A stretch of 64,000 nucleotides of DNA from Nitrosopumilaceae archaeon (GTDB taxonomy: Archaea; Thermoproteota; Nitrososphaeria; Nitrososphaerales; Nitrosopumilaceae): positions 2,752,001 through 2,816,000 of the forward strand of contig CBDCCK010000002.1 of NCBI GenBank assembly GCA_965214835.1. Reading direction: 5' to 3'. The translations under genes were made by a program, and so were the position numbers. Below, piece by piece: positions 4,630 through 56,888 of this stretch (its first letter is position 1; each line of letters begins with the position of its first letter). The notes under the pieces were generated by a model. That model worked only from the letters and a program-made list of their open reading frames with translations, searched no databases and was not told the DNA's origin.

Positions 4630-4678
4630 AAAAAAAAGGCTAGTACAACGCTAGCACTACTTGCCTAAGACTCAAGGA
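4630..4678 (-). ncRNA. Candidate small antisense RNA to the adjacent tRNA
   Basis: Minus strand CUUGAGUCUUAGGCAAG-UAGUGCUAGCGUUGUACUAG-CC-U8; complementary to tRNA 4715-4750; TTTAAAA box (4702-4696) about 20-25 nt upstream; oligo-T terminator. Confidence 0.55.
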
Positions 4679-4708: not shown

Positions 4709-4779
4709 GGGCCCCTAGTATAATGGTAGTACGCTTGCCTAAGACTCAAGAGGTCCGGGTTCGATTCCCGGGGGGTCCA
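4709..4779 (+). tRNA. tRNA with AAG (Leu) anticodon on an Ala-type body
   Basis: Acceptor GGGCCCC/GGGGTCC (G3:U70), A73; D stem GTAT/GTAC; anticodon arm CTTGC-CTAAGAC-TCAAG (AAG at 4741-4743, C31:U39 mismatch); variable loop AGGT; T arm CCGGG-TTCGATT-CCCGG. Confidence 0.9.
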
Positions 4780-4835
4780 CGCTAATTCAGAATGAGCGTA
4801 TCTCTCCGAGACAGCGGCTGCCGGTTCACCATATA

Positions 4836-44557: not shown

Positions 44558-47104
44558 ATGTCAGTACAACAAGCACAAAGAGTAACCGAGCTGCCTCCCT
44601 CCATGCTGGTGTCTGCGACATATGACAGCAAGAACAGGTGCGCAGTACTAAAGTTCTACGAACCAGAGTCGCAGAAAATCATCCTATGGCGGGACGAGAT
44701 AGGCCACAGGCCGTACTGCTACTCAAAGCTAAACCCGGACGAGCTTGGATTCATCGCAGGCAGGAAGGATCTGATAGAAATCAAGGACGTCCGGCGAAAC
44801 GACCTGCTCAGGAGCGAGGAGATTCCGCTATCAAAGATTGTCGTAGAGGATCCGCTGGCCATAGGCGGCACTGCAACGGACAAAAGCCTGAGAAACGTAA
44901 TCGAGACGTGGGAGTCAGACATAAAATACTATGAGAGTTATCTTTACGACAGATCGTTGATCATCGGCAAGTTCTACGAGATCAAGGACTCAAAGGTGAC
45001 CCCGCACGACATGGAGATCCCCCCGGAGGTAAAAGAGTCGCTCAAGACCCTGCTGTGGGAGAATATCTCAGATGAGAAGATGGTAGATCCCGGGCAGTTT
45101 GAGGAGTACATTTCAGACTGGGCGGATCTGCTCAACCAGCCCATTCCAAAGATGAGACGGGTGAGCGTGGACATAGAGGTAGAGGCGGAGGTCGGCCGCA
45201 TTCCGGATCCCAAGCTGGCCGAAAGGAAGGTTACGGCCATAGGGTTTTCAGGAAGCGACGGGTTCAGGGAGATCCTTGTGCTAAGGAAAGCGGGGGTTCA
45301 GCAGGGGGCCAACGACCTGGACTTTGAGCCAAGGTTCTACGAGGAGGAGGACGAAAGACAGATGATACTGGACGCCTTTGGCCTGCTCAGGGAGTTTGCG
45401 TTCGTCCTGACGTATAACGGGGACGAGTTTGATCTGCCGTACCTTTTCAATCGGGCAGAGAGGCTGGGAGTCAAGACGGAGGACAACCCGCTGTACATGA
45501 TGAGGGACTCGGCCACCCTAAAGCACGGCGTGCACATCGACCTGTACAGGACCCTGTCCAACAGATCCTTTCAGATCTACGCATTCAGCCACAAGTATTC
45601 GGACTTTTCGCTCAACAGCGTCTCAAAGGCGCTGCTGGGCAAGGAGAAGATCGACTATGGCGTGGAGTTAAACGACCTGACGCTTTACCAGACTGCAAAC
45701 TATTGCTACAACGACGCGCTACTGACCTACGAGCTTGCAAGCTTTAACAGCGACCTGCTGATGAACCTGCTAGTCGTAATCGCAAGAATCGGCAGGATGC
45801 CGATTGACGACATTGCAAGGCTCGGGGTGTCGCAGTGGATTCGCAGCCTGATGTATTACGAGCACCGCCAGAGAAACGCGCTGATTCCAAAGAGGGAGGA
45901 GCTGCAAAAGCACTCGGCTGCGGTGTCCTCAGAGGCCGTAATCAAGGACAAAAAGTACCGGGGCGGCCTGGTCGTGGATCCCATGGAGGGAATCCACTTT
46001 AACGTCACGGTGATGGACTTTGCAAGCCTGTATCCGAGCATCATCAAGGTGCGAAACCTGTCCTATGAGACGGTAAGGTGTCCGCACGAGGAGTGCAGGG
46101 CAAACACCATCCCGCAGACCAGCCACTGGGTATGCACCAAGAAAAACGGGATGACGGCCATGCTCATAGGCTCGCTACGGGACCTTAGGGTAAACTACTA
46201 CAAGAGCCTGTCAAAAAGGGAGTCGATTACAGAGGAGCAGAGGCAGCAGTACACGGTCGTCAGCCAGGCGCTCAAGGTCATCCTCAACGCCAGCTACGGT
46301 GTAATGGGCGCAGAGATATTCCCCCTGTACTTCCTGCCTGCCGCGGAGGCCACGACTGCCATCGGGAGGCACATAATTTTGCAGACGATTGAAAGGTGCA
46401 AGGAGTTTGGAGTCGAGGTGCTATACGGCGACACGGACTCGCTGTTCATCAAGAACCCCACGCAGGAGCAGATCGACAGGGTCATCAAGCAGGCAAAAAA
46501 GGATCACGGTGTTGACCTTGAGGTGGACAAGGAGTACAGGTATGCGGTGCTGAGCAACAGAAAGAAGAACTACCTGGGGGTCACAAGGTCAGGCAAGGTG
46601 GACGTCAAGGGGCTGACGGGGAAAAAATCCCACACGCCGGGGTTCATCAAAAAGCTGTTTTATGAGCTGCTCGACGTGCTATCCGAGGTCGAAACAATAG
46701 AGGGCTTTGAGCGCGCCAAAAAGGAGATCAGCGACAGGATTGCAGGCTATGCAAAAAAGGTGCAGGAAAAGGAGATCCCGCTTGAGGATCTGGCGTACAA
46801 CGTCATGATAAGCAAGGCGCCCTCAGAGTATGTCAAGACGGTCCCCCAGCACATCAGGGCCGCCAAGATGCTAGAGTCCACAAGGGAGATCAAAAAGGGT
46901 GACATCATATCGTACATCAAGACGCTGGGCAAGCCAGGTGTAAAGCCAGTCGAGCTTGCAAGGCAGACCGAGATTGATCCGAAGAAATACCTCGAGTTCA
47001 TGGAGTCGACACTTGACCAGATAACGTCCTCCATGGATCTTGACTTTGACACCATACTGGGCAAGCCAAAGCAGACCGGCCTGGACCAGTTTTTCTGGAA
47101 CTGA
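44558..47104 (+). CDS. polB1: Family B DNA polymerase (PolB1)
   Basis: DIEV, DFASLYPS, KVILNASYG, YGDTDS, KKNY. Confidence 0.97.
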   Translation: MSVQQAQRVTELPPSMLVSATYDSKNRCAVLKFYEPESQKIILWRDEIGHRPYCYSKLNPDELGFIAGRKDLIEIKDVRRNDLLRSEEIPLSKIVVEDPLAIGGTATDKSLRNVIETWESDIKYYESYLYDRSLIIGKFYEIKDSKVTPHDMEIPPEVKESLKTLLWENISDEKMVDPGQFEEYISDWADLLNQPIPKMRRVSVDIEVEAEVGRIPDPKLAERKVTAIGFSGSDGFREILVLRKAGVQQGANDLDFEPRFYEEEDERQMILDAFGLLREFAFVLTYNGDEFDLPYLFNRAERLGVKTEDNPLYMMRDSATLKHGVHIDLYRTLSNRSFQIYAFSHKYSDFSLNSVSKALLGKEKIDYGVELNDLTLYQTANYCYNDALLTYELASFNSDLLMNLLVVIARIGRMPIDDIARLGVSQWIRSLMYYEHRQRNALIPKREELQKHSAAVSSEAVIKDKKYRGGLVVDPMEGIHFNVTVMDFASLYPSIIKVRNLSYETVRCPHEECRANTIPQTSHWVCTKKNGMTAMLIGSLRDLRVNYYKSLSKRESITEEQRQQYTVVSQALKVILNASYGVMGAEIFPLYFLPAAEATTAIGRHIILQTIERCKEFGVEVLYGDTDSLFIKNPTQEQIDRVIKQAKKDHGVDLEVDKEYRYAVLSNRKKNYLGVTRSGKVDVKGLTGKKSHTPGFIKKLFYELLDVLSEVETIEGFERAKKEISDRIAGYAKKVQEKEIPLEDLAYNVMISKAPSEYVKTVPQHIRAAKMLESTREIKKGDIISYIKTLGKPGVKPVELARQTEIDPKKYLEFMESTLDQITSSMDLDFDTILGKPKQTGLDQFFWN

Positions 47105-47849: not shown

Positions 47850-50800
47850 TAGACCTTATGCGTAAACGAAATTAGCGGTGGTACCCCCGATACCCATGCT
47901 ACAAAGAGAGGGCGCAGCAGTGACGGCACACACACATGACGGTGCCTTGCAATGTTCAAAATATTTGATCAAAACCACAACTGTTTTCAGACGATTGATT
48001 TAGATCCGGGATCCATTCCCTCACAAGAGTAATGGCAAAGTCCGAGACCGAGCAGATACGACTGCTGAGGAAGAGAATCGAGCAGTACGAGAAGGAGAAG
48101 GTACAGGACAGGAAGGAGAAGGCGCGGGACAAAAAGAAGATCAGGAAGTATGAGAAGAGGATCAAGAGGCACGAGAAGAAAATCGGGAAGGACAGGAAGG
48201 AGAAGGCGCGGGCAGGCAGGAGAGGATGCGGTACAGGAAGGAGATCAGAGAGTACGAGAAGAAGGGCAGGCAGGACGGCAGGAGGCACGAGCGGGATCAG
48301 GAGAGGATAGGGCAGCTGGAGCAGCAGCTGGACGCCGAGCGCCGGATGTGGCCCGCAACCTGGGATGACGACAGGCGCACCGCGGACAACGCCGCGTTCA
48401 TACACAGGCTCGAGGTGCTCGAGGACATAATCGGCGGCGGATCCCTGCAGCCCACCACGTCGATGAACCGCCGCCGGTTTGACTATACATACGACCGGTT
48501 TACGGAGTTTGCCAAAAAGCACACGGAGGGCCCCCTATTCTCAGAGGACGAGGACGACGGGCCCGGAAACCGGTGCAAGCTGTCCTACCGCCACGCTCCC
48601 CTGCTGGCCCTGATGCGCAAGTACGGAAACCCGACACGGGAGCAGCTTGCGGCGTTCTTTGGCATAGACCAGAGCACGGTATGCAGATACCTCAAGTATT
48701 GCGACATGATATTTCTCAAGATACTGCCCACGCCGGACGCCGTATCTCAGAAGATACGAAACGCCCGCACGATCGAGGGGCTCAGGGAGATCATCCCGGA
48801 TCTGACCGTGATTGTAGACGGCACGCACATCAGTAGTTCCTCGATGTACTTTTGCAGGCACGATAATTACGCAATTTGCCGAGATTTTTTGACCATCATA
48901 CTATAGATCAGGCGGTGTGCCAACCATCATCATGATACCAACACAAAACGACGTGTTTGCACACCAGTTTGACATAACATCGAGACAGTTTAAAACATTG
49001 CGACGGCGGTTTCCCAAGCTCGGGCTGGCCGTCTCAAAGAGTCGCAACGCAGTGTATGACCACATCGACGCACTGCGCGTTCTATATTTCATGTCTGAGA
49101 GGAGGATGTTTGCAGAATCTGCCGTGACGCACCTTCGCAGGCGGGCCTCAAAATGCAGCAGGCAGCAGCATGACGACGGGGCTGCCTCCAAGGGCGGCGC
49201 GTATAGTTGCCGTACGCCTAGTCCGGACTGGATCCTAAAGGCGATCCGGGGCGTCAGCCTGGATGATGCGCAAAAGTGGTGCAGCTCCATGCTGCAGCAT
49301 ACGGTAAGGTGCGCCCGCAGGTCAGGCATGCTGCACAACACGGACGTCGTGGCAGTGGACGTTACCGACGTGGAATACTATGGCAAGGGCCTGGAGGATA
49401 TCGCCAGAAAGTCAAAGCCCAAGAACGGCACGTCGACGTTTCTCTCGCACATTACCATGCACGGAATAGGATCAGATGACGGGTCTGACCTCGTGCTTTC
49501 CTCGCTGCAGCTTCCAAAAGAGGCAAAACTGGCCGATTTCGTGCCTAAAATGATCCGCAAGGCGTCCAGATCAGGGATGAGGATCAAGACGTTCCTGTAT
49601 GACCGCGGGTTCTTTAACGTGGACTGCATGAGGGCTGCAGAAACAAGCACGGGCAGCTACATCATGCCTGCCGTCAAGAACAGGAGGATAGTGGCGGCAA
49701 TAGAGGAGCATGACCGCGGAGAACGCGGTGCGGTATCAAAATATACAATGACCAACAAGGACGGCAAGAGCGCCACATTCAGGCTAGTCATTGTGGAAAA
49801 GGACGAGGTAGAAAAGGACGGCACGGCAGCAGCAAAGAAGGACAAGGCAGAAGAGACCATAGCCGACAGGTATCTGGTCTTTGCCACCAACATGTCTGCT
49901 AAAAGTGCAGAGGCAGTCATTGAGCAGATACCGGAGGAGTACCGCAGTCGGTGGGGAATCGAGACCGGGTTCAGGGTGATCAAGGGGATAATGGGCAAGA
50001 CGTGCAGCAATTCCCCGGTCGTCAGGCTGCTGCTGTTCTATATGTCTGTCATACTGTACAACCTGTGGAGGACTGCCGTGTTCATAGACGTGGAATCCAA
50101 GTGGGACGGATTTGCAGGAGGGAAGGGGTTTACCATGATGCTGTTTGTCGCGTGCATTGTCGATGCGGCCGACTCGTTTGTAAACGATCGCGGAAAGTAG
50201 CGGAGGTGCCGTGTCGGGTCTGCAAAAGTACATCTAGGAAGTACTGACATCGACATACAGCGCCCCTCGGACAAGGAGCCAAGAAAGGGGGGCGTACTCG
50301 GGCAGGAAGAAGAGCTTTACGCGCAACACCCAGGTGATTGCCGGCAAGAAGGGACTGACGATGTATGCAAGTCGGCGCCCGGAAGCGTGCACGACCTCAC
50401 CATGATAAAGAACAACCCACCGGATCTGGGAATCCTGACTGCCAGGAGCGCGGCAACAGAAAGCACCACGAGGACGAGAAGGTAAAGATGTTCTCGGATC
50501 TGGGATACGTGGGAATCGAGGAGGTGTATCCCGGGGTCAGATCCGTGCAGCCCAACAAGAAGCCAAGGAAAGGCAAGCTTACAAAGAAACAGAAAGCGCA
50601 GAACAGGAGGATAAGCAGCAAGAGGGTGACAGTAGAGCACGCCATAGGACGGATAAGGCAGTACAAGCGGATGCGTGATCCGTACGACGGGACTGCCCGA
50701 GGAGTTCGACAGGGAGTTCCAGGTGACGGCCGGGCTTGCCAACTTTAGGCTGCTGTGGGACAAGCGGAACAAGAAGCTCATGCATGGGTTCTGATATCAC

Positions 50801-50989
50801 GATACGGAGCGCATTGAGGCGCCACACGATGCCGCACGACATGGTAGTTTTTACCAGCTGGAATGGTCCGTAGCTGCACGATATACGGACTCTGCCGCCC
50901 CTGTACACGTCATGTGATGCCGTCAGCCTTGCATGTGTGGCCGGCCACCGTCGGAATATTTCGATCCGGTCGATTACGCATAAGGTCTA
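47850..50989 (+). mobile_element. IS5-like element IS-A copy 3, interrupted by ISH3-like element
   Basis: Both TIRs present; transposase split at DGTHI. Confidence 0.9.
48831..50246 (+). mobile_element. ISH3/IS4-like element (transposase 48917-50200)
   Basis: 27-bp TIR CAGTAGTTCCTCGATGTACTTTTGCAG; TSD ACAT; AVD, YDRGF, YRSRWGIETGF. Confidence 0.92.
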
Positions 50990-51122
50990 GTCTCTTCCTC
51001 TGATCTTCAAGAGCCTCATCGACGATGTATTCCTCCATGCTCTGCTCGATACATCTGAAGGTCTTCACCGGGACACTGCGTGTCAGAATTCCCCTTTCAA
51101 CCCTGGAAAAATCGACTTGCAA
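50990..51122 (-). pseudogene. Probable GNAT toxin N-terminus truncated by IS-A
   Basis: KTFRCIEQSMEEYIVDEALEDQ resembles the start of TacT-like GNATs; follows a small acidic ORF. Confidence 0.45.
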
Positions 51123-51581: not shown

Positions 51582-51826
51582 CAGTCTTCCCAGAAGTAAC
51601 CCAGAAAACGGCCCCAGATTTGAAACAAATCAAATTAGGATATCTACAGATTCGCCTGCCGCCATCTGCACAGTCATGAATCACGTACTTCTGGGAAGAC
51701 TGCTAATCAGTCTTCCCAAAAGTACCGCATCAAATCATCCTAGGCTCGAAACAATTCAGATGATGATGCCTGCAGATCCACATGTCACCTACTGCACCGC
51801 CGTGAGTCGGTTACTTCTGGGAAGAC
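51582..51826. mobile_element. Two tandem MITE family B copies (51582-51702, 51708-51826)
   Basis: CAGTCTTCCCA(G/A)AAGTA / TACTTCTGGGAAGAC ends. Confidence 0.8.
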
Positions 51827-51967: not shown

Positions 51968-52419
51968 ACTGAGTGACATCTACGACGTGGATTTCTCTTT
52001 TCTCAACAAAAAGCGCACATCGAAGTATGACATCTTCCTCTTTGACATACACCTTGAAGCCTTCTCCACATGTAATAAAATGAAGCGATCCCATGGCTCT
52101 TGCCATGTTCCTAATGCTTTCAATCTCTTTCATGTAGATTTCAAAAGAATTAGAATCCTGTGAGTTGCGTGATCTAATCCAACTAATGACAGTTTGACTT
52201 ATTAGAGTATGCCAGCCATTTTGAGACAATTTCAAGTCACGAACTTAGAATATCTTTCAGGTTTCCCGTATAGTGCAATGGCGTTATGGAACCATCACGT
52301 ACCTTGGCCTTGTATGCCTTAATTGCGTCCGTATCATCCTGTGTCCATTCAAGCTTGCTAGGATTCATGTTACACAGCACAAGTGCAATTATTTAAAGGT
52401 AATTATTTTAGGGGACTGG

Positions 52420-53470
52420 TGTGTTATATGAAAATTAGGTTCGTTAGTCATTGATGTCCCTCTCCATCCATTTTGGGTCTTTTTTTCTGATCGCTTCTGT
52501 AGCCTCCCTTGCCAAAAAGGCCTGCAGTGGCGTCTCACACTTGTCGATATCCAGTGCAGTGCAGCCTGCGCTCGTTATAGTACTCCACGTATGCAGCCAG
52601 GCTCTCATAGTGGTGGATTTCCTTCTCTATGCTGCCGTGCAACCGTTCCAGCTTGCCGTTGGTCTCCGGATGGTACGGCCTGGAGTTTATCAGCCCGATG
52701 CCCCGGTCCAGCAGCTCGGCCTCAAATGCAGTCGGCTTCCACGTCCCCTTTGGCATGTTCTTCTTGCTACGGCCGCCGTTGAAGCACCTGCCGTTGTCAG
52801 ACAGTATGGTAGCCGGCGTGCCAAATCTGTCTATGGCATCCCTGAGTGTTATCACCACGTTTTCTGATGTGGCCTCGGCAAACGTCCGTGCCGCCATGAT
52901 ACATCTGGATGAATCGTCCAAAAACGTGACTAATTTGAGCCCTCTCAGGCGTGGATCCTTCATATCGTGCCAGTCCACGTGCCACATTGCGTTGGAGTAC
53001 TTGCGCTCATAGCGTAGCCACTTGCGCTGTCCGGATCTTGCAGCAGACTTTGAGACCAGCTTGTTCTCACTCATTATCCTGTATACAGAGTTGTAGCTTA
53101 TATTCAATTCCTCCCTTGCACGCCTGGCCGTGCGCACCACACCGATGTCCTGCTCGGCGTACAGGCGAAGTACCGTCCGAACCTCATCGCTTGAGGGCGG
53201 CGGCGATGCTGGCCTGCCGGGACTCTTTTGCACGTGTATTACGCCGGTTCTTTCGAACTCGGCGCACAGTCTGCCCACGTACTGGGGCGTCACCTTCAGC
53301 TCCTCTGCTATTGCCTTGAGCGTCCTGCCCTTCTTACGCTGTCTTGTGGCGTATCTTATCTGTCGCTCTGTCAGTGCTTTCTTTTTCGTCGTTTTTCTTG
53401 ATCGGTAAAGGGTAAAGTATTCCTTGGCTTTTCTCAAAATCTTAGGCGAACCTAATTTCCATATAAGACA
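52420..53470 (-). mobile_element. IS481-family element (transposase 52535-53437, 3' frameshift)
   Basis: WHVD, FLDDSSR, LSDNG, HPETNGKLER; TGT..TATATG.AAATTAGGTTCG TIRs. Confidence 0.9.
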
Positions 53471-53523
53471 ACCGAACCTGTGTCCAGATATGTGGTCTTG
53501 GCCGATGCCAGAACCAATGAAAG

Positions 53524-53616
53524 GTATGTGGTCACTTCCCCCTGCTGGCCAGGCGTGAAAATCATAACCCTACATGCCAATTCGTGCCTGATTGATAGGG
53601 GTAGGTGACCTCGTAC
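53524..53616. mobile_element. MITE family A (93 bp)
   Basis: GTATGTGGTCAC...GTGACCTCGTAC; 8-bp TSD AATGAAAG. Confidence 0.9.
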
Positions 53617-53634
53617 AATGAAAGTATGTTTATG

Positions 53635-53871
53635 TCAAGTCCAGCGGTGGGGATTCCTGCAAGGACACCCTCGACACATACCCCCCCCCCCACCACAGAA
53701 TGGGTCTAGCAACGATACAGGTTTAGTCTCTTGGATCATCTTTTTTGCAAGAGCTGGAATCATAGATGCCACATACGGATGCATTCCATGAGTGGCATAA
53801 GTGGTGCTGATTTTCTTGAATTGGAAATCATCACGCAGAATAGGTCTGGCTAGTCGTGCATGTGTCGTCAT
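53635..53871 (-). pseudogene. DNA methyltransferase N-terminal fragment
   Basis: THGMHPYVA...LLDPFCGGG; frame lost in a poly-G run. Confidence 0.75.
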
Positions 53872-54044
53872 TTTTCACACCCACCTTTCACCATTATTTT
53901 TTTGCCCTCAATCACAAATTGAATCGATTTGGGGTTATTAAGGAAATCTCTGATCGGTTTGGGTACTCGGCAGATTATACTATGCCTTCCATCATCTGAC
54001 AGTTTTACACAAAACCTAGTTTCGTCTTCCTTCCATCTTGTCAA
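53868..54044 (-). CDS. Small AbrB-like DNA-binding protein (58 aa)
   Basis: TTG start; MTRWKEDETRFCVKL..CRVPKPIRDFLNNPKSIQFVIEGKKIMV; ATGA-coupled to the MTase. Confidence 0.6.
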   Translation of the reverse strand: MTRWKEDETRFCVKLSDDGRHSIICRVPKPIRDFLNNPKSIQFVIEGKKIMVKGGCEK

Positions 54045-54077
54045 TAATCCATTTACGCTGACAGGTTATATTAAGCG

Positions 54078-54142
54078 ATCGGATAACTATGCATACGGAT
54101 AGCAGCAAGGATTAAATAAGCATACGGATAATATCGCGTATG
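54078..54142. promoter_or_regulatory. tRNA promoter with operator-like repeats
   Basis: TTAAATA at 54112-54118; GCATACGGATA at 54091 and 54120; imperfect palindrome CATACGGATAATATCGCGTATG at 54121-54142. Confidence 0.6.
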
Positions 54143-54225
54143 GCGAGGTTGCTTAGGCAGGTAGAGCGACGATCTGAAAAATCGTTGGGTGTGCACCTAC
54201 GGGGGTTCGAATCCCCCTCTCGCCG
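54142..54225 (+). tRNA. tRNA with GAA (Phe) anticodon on a Ser-type class II body
   Basis: Acceptor GGCGAGG/TCTCGCC, G73; anticodon arm ACGAT-CTGAAAA-ATCGT (GAA at 54176-54178); 15-nt variable arm TGGGTGTGCACCTAC; T arm GGGGG-TTCGAAT-CCCCC. Confidence 0.92.
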
Positions 54226-54276
54226 CTTACAACATTTTCCATTATTCTCTATTTTAACTTTTGAGCGGGATCAGAT

Positions 54277-56818
54277 ATGAACGCAAGGGAAAAGAAGGCC
54301 AGACAGATCATGTCGGTGCCAAACCACGCATTCGAAACAATAGGAGAAAATACATTCAAGGTAAGGTCACAATCCGACCCATCCAAGTTCTACATAATCA
54401 CAAGAACCGGCAACGGGCTTGTCTGCGAGTGTCCAGACCACCGGATCAGAAAGGCGGACTGCAAGCACATCAAGGTCATACTGGAGTATGTCAGAAGAAA
54501 CGTGTTCGGACACGAGGGATTCAGGATAATGGAGAGGTCGAAGATCAGGCTGTGCAAGTTCTTCGATTCTGGCAACGTCATCAAGAAGGGAACGAGAAAA
54601 AACAAGAATGGCGATGTGCAGATTTTCAAGTGTACCGACTGCAACAGACGATTTACAGCAAACTTTGGCTTTGAGAAAAAACAGTTTGATGACAGAACCG
54701 TAACTGCTGCCTTGTAGATGTACTATACGGGAATGTCAGTACGGGATATCGCAGACCATTACGAGATGATGGGAATTGATGTGTGCCATAAGACCGTCTA
54801 CAACTGGATTGACGAGTACTCCAAACTCACCACACGGTACATAAACGGAATCGTCCCAAGGGTCGGCAGTTGGTTCAGGGCCGACGAGGTATGGGTAAAA
54901 ATCGCAGGAAAGCAGTGCTGTATTTTTGCATCAATGGATGATGACACACGATACTGGCTGGCCTCCGACCTTGCAGACAACAAGTTCCAGCACAATGCGG
55001 ACAGCCTACTACAGCTAACCAAGCTACAAGCTGGCAAGTCACCTAGGAACTTTATCACTGATGGCCTGCCTGCCTACATGAAATCATCCAAGAAGGTGTT
55101 TGGAAATAAGACAAACCACGTAAGGCACATCCACCTGGCTGGAAAAAGAGACCGTGACAATAACAACAAGATGGAGAGGCTCAACGGCGAGATCAGAGAC
55201 CGTGAGAAGGTGTTTCGGGGCCTCAAGAAGATGGATACTTCAGTACTTCCTAGATGTACTTTTGCAGACCCGACACGGCACCTCCGCTACTTTCCGCGAT
55301 CGTTTACAAACGAGTCGGCCGCATCGACAATGCACGCGACAAACAGCATCATGGTAAACCCCTTCCCTCCTGCAAATCCGTCCCACTTGGATTCCACGTC
55401 TATGAACACGGCAGTCCTCCACAGGTTGTACAGTATGACAGACATATAGAACAGCAGCAGCCTGACGACCGGGGAATTGCTGCACGTCTTGCCCATTATC
55501 CCCTTGATCACCCTGAACCCGGTCTCGATTCCCCACCGACTGCGGTACTCCTCCGGTATCTGCTCAATGACTGCCTCTGCACTTTTAGCAGACATGTTGG
55601 TGGCAAAGACCAGATACCTGTCGGCTATGGTCTCTTCTGCCTTGTCCTTCTTTGCTGCTGCCGTGCCGTCCTTTTCTACCTCGTCCTTTTCCACAATGAC
55701 TAGCCTGAATGTGGCGCTCTTGCCGTCCTTGTTGGTCATTGTATATTTTGATACCGCACCGCGTTCTCCGCGGTCATGCTCCTCTATTGCCGCCACTATC
55801 CTCCTGTTCTTGACGGCAGGCATGATGTAGCTGCCCGTGCTTGTTTCTGCAGCCCTCATGCAGTCCACGTTAAAGAACCCGCGGTCATACAGGAACGTCT
55901 TGATCCTCATCCCTGATCTGGACGCCTTGCGGATCATTTTAGGCACGAAATCGGCCAGTTTTGCCTCTTTTGGAAGCTGCAGCGAGGAAAGCACGAGGTC
56001 AGACCCGTCATCTGATCCTATTCCGTGCATGGTAATGTGCGAGAGAAACGTCGACGTGCCGTTCTTGGGCTTTGACTTTCTGGCGATATCCTCCAGGCCC
56101 TTGCCATAGTATTCCACGTCGGTAACGTCCACTGCCACGACGTCCGTGTTGTGCAGCATGCCTGACCTGCGGGCGCACCTTACCGTATGCTGCAGCATGG
56201 AGCTGCACCACTTTTGCGCATCATCCAGGCTGACGCCCCGGATCGCCTTTAGGATCCAGTCCGGACTAGGCGTACGGCAACTATACGCGCCGCCCTTGGA
56301 GGCAGCCCCGTCGTCATGCTGCTGCCTGCTGCATTTTGAGGCCCGCCTGCGAAGGTGCGTCACGGCAGATTCTGCAAACATCCTCCTCTCAGACATGAAA
56401 TATAGAACGCGCAGTGCGTCGATGTGGTCATACACTGCGTTGCGACTCTTTGAGACGGCCAGCCCGAGCTTGGGAAACCGCCGTCGCAATGTTTTAAACT
56501 GTCTCGATGTTATGTCAAACTGGTGTGCAAACACGTCGTTTTGTGTTGGTATCATGATGATGGTTGGCACACCGCCTGATCTATAGTATGATGGTCAAAA
56601 AATCTCGGCAAATTGCGTAATTATCGTGCCTGCAAAAGTACATCGAGGAACTACTGACTTCCATACTTGACGGAATGAGGGTATACTATAATTTCACGAA
56701 AAAACACGGTGCACTGGACGGTCAGACCCCCGCAGAGTCGGCCCTGATAAGCGTGGACGGTACGAACAAGTGGAAAACCATAATCCAGAACGCCTCACTA
56801 AGTAAAAATTCAGCCTAG
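54277..56818 (+). pseudogene. IS6-like DDE transposase with N-terminal SWIM and Zn ribbon; internal TAG and ISH3-like insertion
   Basis: CECPD..CKH, FRADE, MDDDTRYW, ITDGL, NNKMERLNG; TAG at 54715-54717; frame resumes at 56657. Confidence 0.88.
55241..56656 (-). mobile_element. ISH3/IS4-like element, second copy (transposase 55287-56570)
   Basis: Same length (1416 bp) and same protein as 48831-50246; TSD ACTT. Confidence 0.92.
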
Positions 56819-56888
56819 TCGTAAAAATCGAATCTGAAGAAGATCCATATTTCAGGTCTCGAAGATTACACAGAACCTTATTTTAGGG

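Follow-up and report, generated by a model that had tools for sequence, protein, structure and literature searches.

A serine-type tRNA with a phenylalanine anticodon in a broken IS6-family transposon of a Nitrosopumilaceae archaeon, a candidate archaeal analogue of bacterial allo-tRNAs

Introduction

Natural tRNAs whose body and anticodon belong to different amino acid identities are rare, and they constitute raw material for genetic-code change and regulated mistranslation. Two synthetases, those for serine and alanine, charge their tRNAs without regard to the anticodon. In yeasts of the CTG clade, a serine-identity tRNA, tRNA-Ser(CAG), reads the leucine codon CUG, which represents a fixed chromosomal reassignment of a single codon. 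The nev-tRNAs of nematodes, which Hamashima et al. are said to have described in 2012, reportedly combine a long variable arm with Gly or Ile(UAU) anticodons and are charged according to the arm. In bacteria, the genes of allo-tRNAs neighbour those of toxin-antitoxin systems and transposons (Mukai et al. 2017, NAR 45:2776; PMC5389517), and those with Leu anticodons insert serine and are toxic in E. coli (PMC5389517). The tRNA-ProX of Streptomyces/Kitasatospora likewise joins a body and an anticodon of different identities and causes mistranslation when expressed (PMC11415595). Within the literature searched, which included the texts of two reviews (PMC11415595, PMC9499178), no archaeal or thaumarchaeal tRNAs of such kind were found; as far as that literature extends, the tRNAs described below would be the first set of identity/anticodon-mismatched tRNAs in Archaea.

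In this study, we analyse a stretch of 64,000 nucleotides (hereafter the window, to which coordinates refer unless they are given as genome coordinates) from a Nitrosopumilaceae archaeon with a genome of 3.22 Mb and 52.6% G+C. A preliminary description made from the letters of the window had proposed that one of its tRNA genes joins a serine-type body to the phenylalanine anticodon GAA. Host tRNAs were listed by ARAGORN together with an intron search, and tRNA identity was judged on named determinants and pairwise identity. The survey of other mismatched tRNAs in the same genome took the form of a feature table of all ARAGORN calls with their sequences.

The tRNA gene and its signals

ARAGORN called two tRNA genes in the window, one of which lies at 54142-54226 and carries the anticodon GAA. 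With 54.0 bits against Rfam RF00005 (E 8.2e-9), the stretch 54142-54225 exceeds the gathering score of 29 and thus passes as a tRNA, and ARAGORN, the Rfam score of 54 bits and family covariation together delimit a type-II tRNA on the forward strand that spans positions 1-73 (54142..54225). Its acceptor stem has 7 bp (GGCGAGG/TCTCGCC, including G7:U66) and is followed by U8, and the D arm consists of a 4-bp stem and the loop AGGCAGGUA, which contains A14, G15, G18, G19, U20, and A21. All five pairs of the anticodon stem (ACGAU/AUCGU) are formed, and the loop reads C-U-GAA-A-A, with the anticodon at 54176-54178. The variable region of 15 nt (U-GGGU-GUGC-ACCU-A-C) folds into a 4-bp stem with a 4-nt loop, succeeded by a lone unpaired A and C48, while the T arm (GGGGG-UUCGAAU-CCCCC) has a 5-bp stem. 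The discriminator is G73 at 54225, and CCA is not encoded. All conserved tertiary positions are present, and no structural position has decayed.

A TATA-like box, TTAAATA, at 54112..54118 on the forward strand (-30 to -24) is a putative promoter of archaeal type for the tRNA gene, and an A/T box of this type occurs at an equal distance from the tRNA in all seven aligned homologous loci. On the other side, the spacer at 54226..54276 (forward strand) comprises T runs, likely to be the tRNA terminator, and a TATTTTAA box 20-27 nt before the ATG of a transposase gene, which was recognized in the sequence and in alignments as a weak form of the TCTATATTAATTTTCGAGG promoter/RBS motif conserved in relatives. 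The anatomy given in the preliminary description (the fully paired anticodon stem, the CU-GAA-AA loop, the paired 15-nt arm, G73, and G15:C48), as well as the TTAAATA box at -30 and the T-rich 3′ flank, was found in the sequence item by item. Two other views of the gene were ruled out: that the variable arm is an intron, since an identical arm layout occurs in all four host tRNA-Ser genes, and that the tRNA is a leader of the transposase mRNA, since the transposase has a TATA-like box of its own, 20-30 nt ahead of its start codon, and T runs follow the tRNA.

A serine-type body beside separate host tRNAs for serine and phenylalanine

The host encodes tRNA-Ser(GGA) at genome coordinates 1603102-1603201, a gene that contains a 13-nt intron and encodes its CCA, along with Ser(GCU), Ser(UGA), and Ser(CGA), and a canonical tRNA-Phe(GAA) at genome coordinates 2398337-2398413, with G20, A73, CCA, and a 5-nt variable loop; all of these were called by ARAGORN. 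Because the host thus possesses its own tRNA-Ser(GGA) and tRNA-Phe, the GAA tRNA is neither the only Ser(GGA) nor the only Phe tRNA of the genome, a circumstance that the preliminary description had named as fatal to its reading and that does not apply, the two host genes existing separately.

The layout of the variable arm, namely U44, 4 bp, a 4-nt loop, A, and C48, is shared by the GAA tRNA and the four host tRNA-Ser genes, unlike the three host tRNA-Leu genes examined, which have a 3-bp variable stem followed by UU, together with A73. Pairwise identity to the GAA tRNA amounts to 58-67% for host Ser, 45-48% for Leu, and 50% for Phe tRNAs. The gene carries the two main serine marks, the long variable arm and G73, combined with an anticodon that is GAA and not of the serine types NGA or GCU. 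The pair G30:C40 is a weaker determinant for bacterial-type and archaeal SerRS (PMC9976931); the GAA tRNA has A30:U40 at this place, and 14 members of the family described below have G:C in seven cases and C:G in six. Phenylalanine identity rests on G34, A35, A36, and A73, with G20 added in some species (PMC9976931), and only the anticodon part of this set (G34, A35, A36) is present here, whereas G73, U20, and the 15-nt variable region do not fit. The proposal of a Ser-type body with a Phe anticodon is therefore borne out at the level of anatomy by G73, the arm layout of the host serine tRNAs, and the identity to these tRNAs. Judged by its sequence, the GAA tRNA is a complete, translation-competent cloverleaf that descends from a serine tRNA and whose anticodon has left the serine boxes.

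The host has a single SerRS of the standard type (TIGR00414, 511.7 bits), encoded at genome coordinates 472011-473252, with no second copy, and a single AlaRS.

A broken IS6-family element around the tRNA

The GAA tRNA lies within a 4992-bp stretch flanked by two identical inverted copies of a 1418-bp IS, and its immediate neighbours are a divergent ORF of 58 aa on one side and an IS6-family transposase gene on the other. The transposase gene (54277..55239, forward strand) is broken, as established from its translation, the Pfam match DDE_Tnp_IS240 (E 1.1e-10), alignment with a paralog, and tblastn with intact copies. Its N-terminal part, with a CxC...CxH zinc finger, occupies 54277-54714; an in-frame TAG stands at 54715-54717, where the paralog has CAG; and the DDE part (54718-55239) is cut at 55240 by an IS insertion. 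The inserted IS of 1418 bp (55240..56657, reverse strand), identified by repeat search and Pfam, encodes a DDE_Tnp_1 transposase of 427 aa and has 34-nt terminal inverted repeats; the identical inverted copy is situated at 48830-50247. Beyond the insertion, the C-terminal remainder of the IS6-family transposase was detected by tblastn at 56657..56800 on the forward strand, corresponding to residues 321-368 of the intact copy c680640 with 94% identity. A genome motif search placed the right terminal inverted repeat of the transposon, CGAAGATTACACAGAACC, at 56860..56877 (forward strand). The same kind of motif search did not find the left inverted repeat in the window, and this repeat was presumably lost to insertions of an IS (52419-53470) and a MITE-like element (53523-53619).

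The conserved 58-aa ORF (53871..54044, reverse strand), recognized by ORF scan and alignment, begins with TTG and is divergent from the tRNA. It has no Pfam match and no sequence match in the PDB, and Foldseek returned nothing below E 2.4; its AlphaFold model (pLDDT 75.8) has a beta-alpha-beta-beta layout. A motif-based guess that the ORF encodes an AbrB/antitoxin-type protein was not established, as Pfam, PDB, and Foldseek lent it no support. Downstream of the small ORF, a 78-aa remnant (53635..53871, reverse strand) with a weak Pfam match to UPF0020 (E 0.14) is cut by the MITE-like repeat at 53523-53619 and may possibly be the N-terminus of a methyltransferase; relatives have an EcoRI-type or N4/N6-type methyltransferase in its place.

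The genome is very rich in IS elements, and several repeats of the window occur in tens of copies across it, including an element of about 745 bp (50248-50990), tandem units of about 120 nt (51582-51826), and the MITE-like element at 53523-53619, which is about 95 nt long and ends in GTGACCTCGTAC. Just upstream of the IS cluster lies a gene (44558-47104, forward strand) for a family B DNA polymerase of 848 aa that includes an exonuclease domain. Farther away in the window, the reverse strand at 15003-15096 matches the Rfam DUF3800-X RNA with 44.3 bits, above the gathering score of 38.2.

The tRNA as transposon cargo in relatives

Within the same genome, blastn revealed a paralogous unit at 381363-380710 that consists of an 86-nt long-arm tRNA with G73 and the anticodon UAU, followed by the same transposase, with 74% identity from the T arm onward. 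In a third unit (t702, at genome coordinate 702318), the anticodon loop has only six bases and the transposase has been replaced by another IS. A tRNA precedes the transposase in only two of the ten copies in this genome. Across the seven aligned loci, an ORF of 54-61 aa is always located on the opposite strand upstream of the tRNA, followed by a DNA methyltransferase of varying type, and in one relative the cargo comprises an EcoRI-type methyltransferase (E 1e-137) together with a GmrSD_N-HNH nuclease.

The units are bounded by the motif GGTTCTGTG(T/C)AATC and its complement. The UAU unit of the same genome (L201, 378331-383409) measures 5079 bp and has the 8-bp duplication GGACGGGC on both sides; a second unit, L197 of genome G387, measures 6444 bp and has perfect repeats of 34 nt and the 8-bp duplication TGGGTTGC; and the third bounded unit measures 4169 bp, with 23-nt repeats and no target duplication. 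The cargo-bearing IS6-family transposons (L199 of genome G386, L197, and L201) therefore range from 4.2 to 6.4 kb, with 8-bp target duplications in two of three. Because inverted repeats and 8-bp target duplications bound the whole unit in relatives, the tRNA is transposon cargo. The transposase is intact in two relatives, and the carrier is, to go by these sequences, an active element there. The unit as we reconstruct it is ordered as follows: the left repeat, methyltransferase or other restriction-modification cargo, the 58-aa ORF, the tRNA and the transposase in divergent orientation to that ORF, and finally the right repeat. The text of a 2019 survey reports that passenger-gene transposons were not detected in archaea (PMC6563490); the present units show archaeal transposons with passenger genes, both restriction-modification genes and a tRNA.

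The tRNA is not a constant component of these elements. At least 485 relatives of the transposase are present in genome_contigs, and a long-arm tRNA with G73 lies directly upstream in 3 of the best 80; among the best 80 loci in metagenome_contigs, no long-arm tRNA was found upstream of the transposase. Of 131 genomes of a related genus, 40 contain the small ORF, each with up to 18 copies, and a Ser-like tRNA adjoins it in 5 of 30 and 7 of 20 loci. Since the tRNA is present in 12 of these 50 small-ORF loci and in none of the 80 metagenome transposase loci, it is dispensable for the element. The linked transposases neither avoid nor prefer the codon read by their own tRNA, although the genes are too few for a conclusion: AUA makes up 7 of 20 Ile codons in L033, and CUG makes up 4 of 17 Leu codons in L038 and 7 of 22 in L053, values similar to those of tRNA-less relatives of like G+C.

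Anticodons and fold of the tRNA family

All 14 relatives that have an intact 7-nt loop and stand beside the small ORF carry the anticodon GAA (L250), UAU (t381, L033, and L240), CAG (L038, L053, L245, L248, and L221, all five of which keep G73), GAU (L114, L241, and L244), or UAG (L256, with A73). Each of these anticodons has A35, which with the target included gives 15 of 15 loci. The expectation that homologs might vary among non-serine anticodons was thus confirmed, and none of them has GGA.

An alignment of 14 rows (A4), comprising the target, t702, and 12 of the intact-loop relatives, has an invariant A35 column. In this alignment, 98.6% of the stem cells are paired, 14 of 21 pairs have changed on both sides, and none of 500 shuffles reaches the covariation score. 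The anticodon stem differs in each subfamily yet is always paired, four of its five pairs having changed on both sides, and the loop pattern Y32-U33-NNN-R37-A38 is kept in most family members. One subfamily shows loop decay: the loop of t702 is reduced to 6 nt, L114 has C33, and L214 has gained 15 nt by insertion. In L221, the T loop is degenerate. The capacity to decode has therefore not been kept throughout. A35 carries modest statistical weight, for a rough count gives at least four anticodon changes, all at position 34 or 36, and hence a chance of (2/3)^4 = 0.2; the chance falls to about 0.03, again by rough count, once two other families of the same genome are added.

Other tRNAs with mismatched body and anticodon

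A second family with G73, distinguished by a 9-bp variable stem, belongs to a unit of about 220 nt that is repeated in the genome with its flanks conserved, and includes three members with GAU, one with GAA, one with CAG, and a distant relative with CAG. Its loci lie outside the window at genome coordinates 182875, 1824008, 1826707, 1090321 (reverse strand), 2887467 (reverse strand), and 914323, often with IS66-like genes inserted just downstream. Additionally, one long-arm tRNA with G73 in this genome has the anticodon CCU.

A further family is Ala-like: its members are 72 nt long, have G3:U70 and A73, and belong to a unit about 165 nt long that is present four times, with the anticodons AAG (twice), GAG, and GAA. 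One of them, with the leucine anticodon AAG, is situated in the window at 4709-4780 on the forward strand, with an upstream element at about 4661-4677. The bodies of the copies are identical at 52-54 of 55 positions, while the 17-nt anticodon arm matches at only 11-14 of 17, and each unit contains, 48 nt upstream, a same-sense copy of the arm that matches its own tRNA at 14-16 of 17 positions and so co-varies with it. For the GAA tRNA at 54142-54225, no second copy of the anticodon arm was found within the window at up to 3 mismatches. A tRNA with G3:U70, A73, and the Asp anticodon GUC lies at genome coordinates 2749119-2749192 (reverse strand), 2.8 kb before the start of the window; its leader shares 69% identity with the leader of the Ala-like unit, and the canonical tRNA-Asp (G73, CCA) is at genome coordinate 1337904.

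Other genera contain Ala-like tRNAs with AAG, GAA, AUC, and CAG as well as Ser-like tRNAs with UAA, GAC, ACG, and UAU; the G3:U70/A73 tRNAs with CAG, AUC, GAA, and AAG were located in other Nitrosopumilaceae genera (L209 in G356, L236 in G160, L237 in G080, and L235 in G052). Most of the mismatched anticodons, though not all, read hydrophobic codons.

Possible functions of the GAA tRNA

The explanation that we place first, at roughly even chances, is that the GAA tRNA receives serine from the host's only SerRS, which is blind to the anticodon, and can deliver it to UUY codons, as an archaeal analogue of the bacterial allo-tRNAs. The gene would be transcribed from its own TATA promoter, and the transcript would be matured and receive its CCA post-transcriptionally. 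The standard-type SerRS of the host, reading the long variable arm and G73 and not the anticodon, would then charge it with serine, and the resulting Ser-tRNA(GAA) would compete with the genuine tRNA-Phe at UUC and UUU, so that serine might replace phenylalanine at a low or conditional level. The relatives would likewise place serine at isoleucine codons (UAU and GAU) and leucine codons (CAG and UAG). Because the anticodons of the relatives all stand for hydrophobic amino acids too, isoleucine and leucine being the others, the GAA tRNA may mistranslate proteins deliberately, and by analogy with the bacterial allo-tRNAs its role is probably that of a "missense" or toxic tRNA of a mobile element. 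A30:U40 in the target, loop decay in one subfamily, and the absence of the tRNA from most copies of the element speak against a missense function, and PheRS, which reads G34, A35, and A36, could compete for the charging of the GAA tRNA. Moreover, since the transposon in the window is dead, this particular copy could be a drifting relic.

Two of the alternatives concern the origin of the anticodon. A sequencing or assembly error at its middle base has nothing in its favour beyond the single-base distance from GGA, and its probability is next to nil: contigs from runs X5 and X6 of an independent study cover 53650-54400 with a single difference, which lies outside the tRNA, and the tRNA gene in them is identical. 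A third study contributes a 180-nt contig (X7, depth 2.8) that spans 54061-54226; it has 13 differences over 166 nt and keeps the anticodon GAA. Eight of these were itemised, namely seven in the stretch of 40 nt that precedes the tRNA, and G7A, which changes G7:U66 to A:U; none affects the anticodon. The remaining five are close to the ends of the contig. In all, four runs of three studies yield contigs without a difference at the anticodon site, which refutes an error and also removes the concern, raised in the preliminary description, that GAA might be an error or a private mutation. That the gene is instead a decaying duplicate of the host tRNA-Ser(GGA) with a private G35A change is suggested by the loops, CUGAAAA against CUGGAAA in the host, where position 35 is the sole difference, and by the broken state of the surrounding transposon. 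However, the GAA tRNA and the host Ser(GGA) share only 62% identity, the intron and encoded CCA of the host gene are absent from the GAA gene, whose flanks are homologous to transposon units of other genomes and in which no structural position has decayed, and GAA is kept in the diverged metagenome copy; a duplicate of this kind is largely refuted and very improbable. Outside its own genome, a blastn search across 41 genomes recovered only 20-27-nt T-arm matches to the GAA tRNA, and exact patterns spanning its anticodon arm had no match in genome_contigs, viral_contigs, or metagenome_contigs.

The other two alternatives concern what the tRNA does. If the anticodon dominated, PheRS would charge the molecule with phenylalanine, making it a harmless extra tRNA-Phe and its relatives extra Ile and Leu tRNAs supplied by a mobile element. 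Of the four Phe determinants that are strictly conserved, G34, A35, and A36 make up three, and PheRS mischarges a yeast tRNA-Tyr once its anticodon is changed to GAA (PMC9976931). The anticodons that PheRS and the synthetases for Ile and Leu read all contain A35, and L256 (UAG) has A73, which together with its long arm fits leucine identity. Against such charging stand G73 in place of the conserved A73 and U20 in place of G20, where the host tRNA-Phe has G20 and A73, as well as a 15-nt variable arm that is foreign to tRNA-Phe; moreover, G73 acts as an antideterminant against archaeal LeuRS (PMC9976931) and is nevertheless retained in all five CAG members. Cognate charging is accordingly rather unlikely in our estimation. 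A tRNA-shaped passenger that takes no part in decoding, whether as a non-ribosomal aminoacyl donor, a decoy for anticodon nucleases, a promoter or boundary element, or a tolerated hitch-hiker with a drifting anticodon, would accommodate the fact that the anticodon differs in every subfamily, the C33, 6-nt loop, and insertion seen in one of them, the absence of the tRNA from most copies of the transposon and the small ORF, and the neutrality of the (few) linked transposase genes toward the codon of their own tRNA. Mukai et al. also held that most allo-tRNA(UAU) species may go unused in translation (PMC5389517). On the other hand, compensatory changes rebuild the anticodon stem in every subfamily (both sides of four of the five pairs), Y32-U33-NNN-R37-A38 is kept in most members, and positions 34 and 36 vary while A35 never does; neither the stem compensation nor the loop pattern nor A35 is required for recognition by SerRS or for a mere promoter. 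A non-decoding passenger is unlikely, but it retains an appreciable share of the probability.

Extending the preferred reading, misinsertion of serine, to the other families is more speculative. Tentatively, and with some doubt on our part, IS-rich Nitrosopumilaceae may hold a mobile toolkit of "missense tRNAs" built on serine bodies (long arm and G73) and alanine bodies (G3:U70 and A73), with A35-containing anticodons for the hydrophobic codons of Leu, Ile, and Phe. Their conditional expression would exchange hydrophobic residues for serine or alanine throughout the proteome and could provide a device, linked to the transposon, for addiction, abortive infection, or stress, in which the arm copy 48 nt upstream of the Ala-like tRNAs might act as a regulator, either as an antisense source or as a decoy.

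Comparison with known systems

The nev-tRNAs are eukaryotic and reportedly of leucine identity, and they are not known to be carried by transposons, unlike the archaeal family. With the yeast tRNA-Ser(CAG), the family shares the combination of G73, a long arm, and CAG, found in L038, L053, L245, L248, and L221; in contrast to the yeast tRNA, the archaeal tRNAs are multi-copy mobile passengers that exist beside intact cognate tRNAs. The tRNA-ProX differs in having a dedicated ProRSx and A33 (PMC11415595), whereas the archaeon has one SerRS and one AlaRS, and the GAA tRNA has U33. The carrier resembles IS6 (IS26-type) elements in its DDE_Tnp_IS240 transposase and, in relatives of the window's copy, in short terminal inverted repeats starting with GGTTCTG and 8-bp target duplications, but it differs from them in carrying methyltransferase or GmrSD-HNH restriction genes, the small ORF, and the tRNA, and in the N-terminal CxC...CxH zinc finger of its transposase.

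The likeness to the allo-tRNAs consists in the long arm, serine identity (G73/U73 in allo-tRNAs and G73 here), and a non-Ser anticodon, with UAU prominent (PMC5389517), and the archaeal family likewise adjoins mobile-element genes. Unlike the allo-tRNAs, which are bacterial (Acidobacteria and others) and have 8/4 or 9/3 acceptor/T stems forming a 12-bp branch (PMC5389517), the present family is archaeal and has the canonical 7/5 arrangement. Since the defining 8/4 or 9/3 fold is absent, the GAA tRNA would work like an allo-tRNA and yet stand outside that family. Allo-tRNA anticodons correspond to 35 codons, with UAU, GCG, and GUC predominant (PMC5389517), whereas the target and its 14 intact relatives all have A35, and such a common limitation to hydrophobic codons may point to selection on which codons are misread. 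The sequences of SerRS, PheRS, and the tRNAs are in hand, so the case can be tested directly. In contrast to the allo-tRNAs, the archaeal tRNA demonstrably lies, in relatives, inside an IS6-family transposon with target duplications, and it is the canonical fold together with this demonstrable vehicle that distinguishes the archaeal set.
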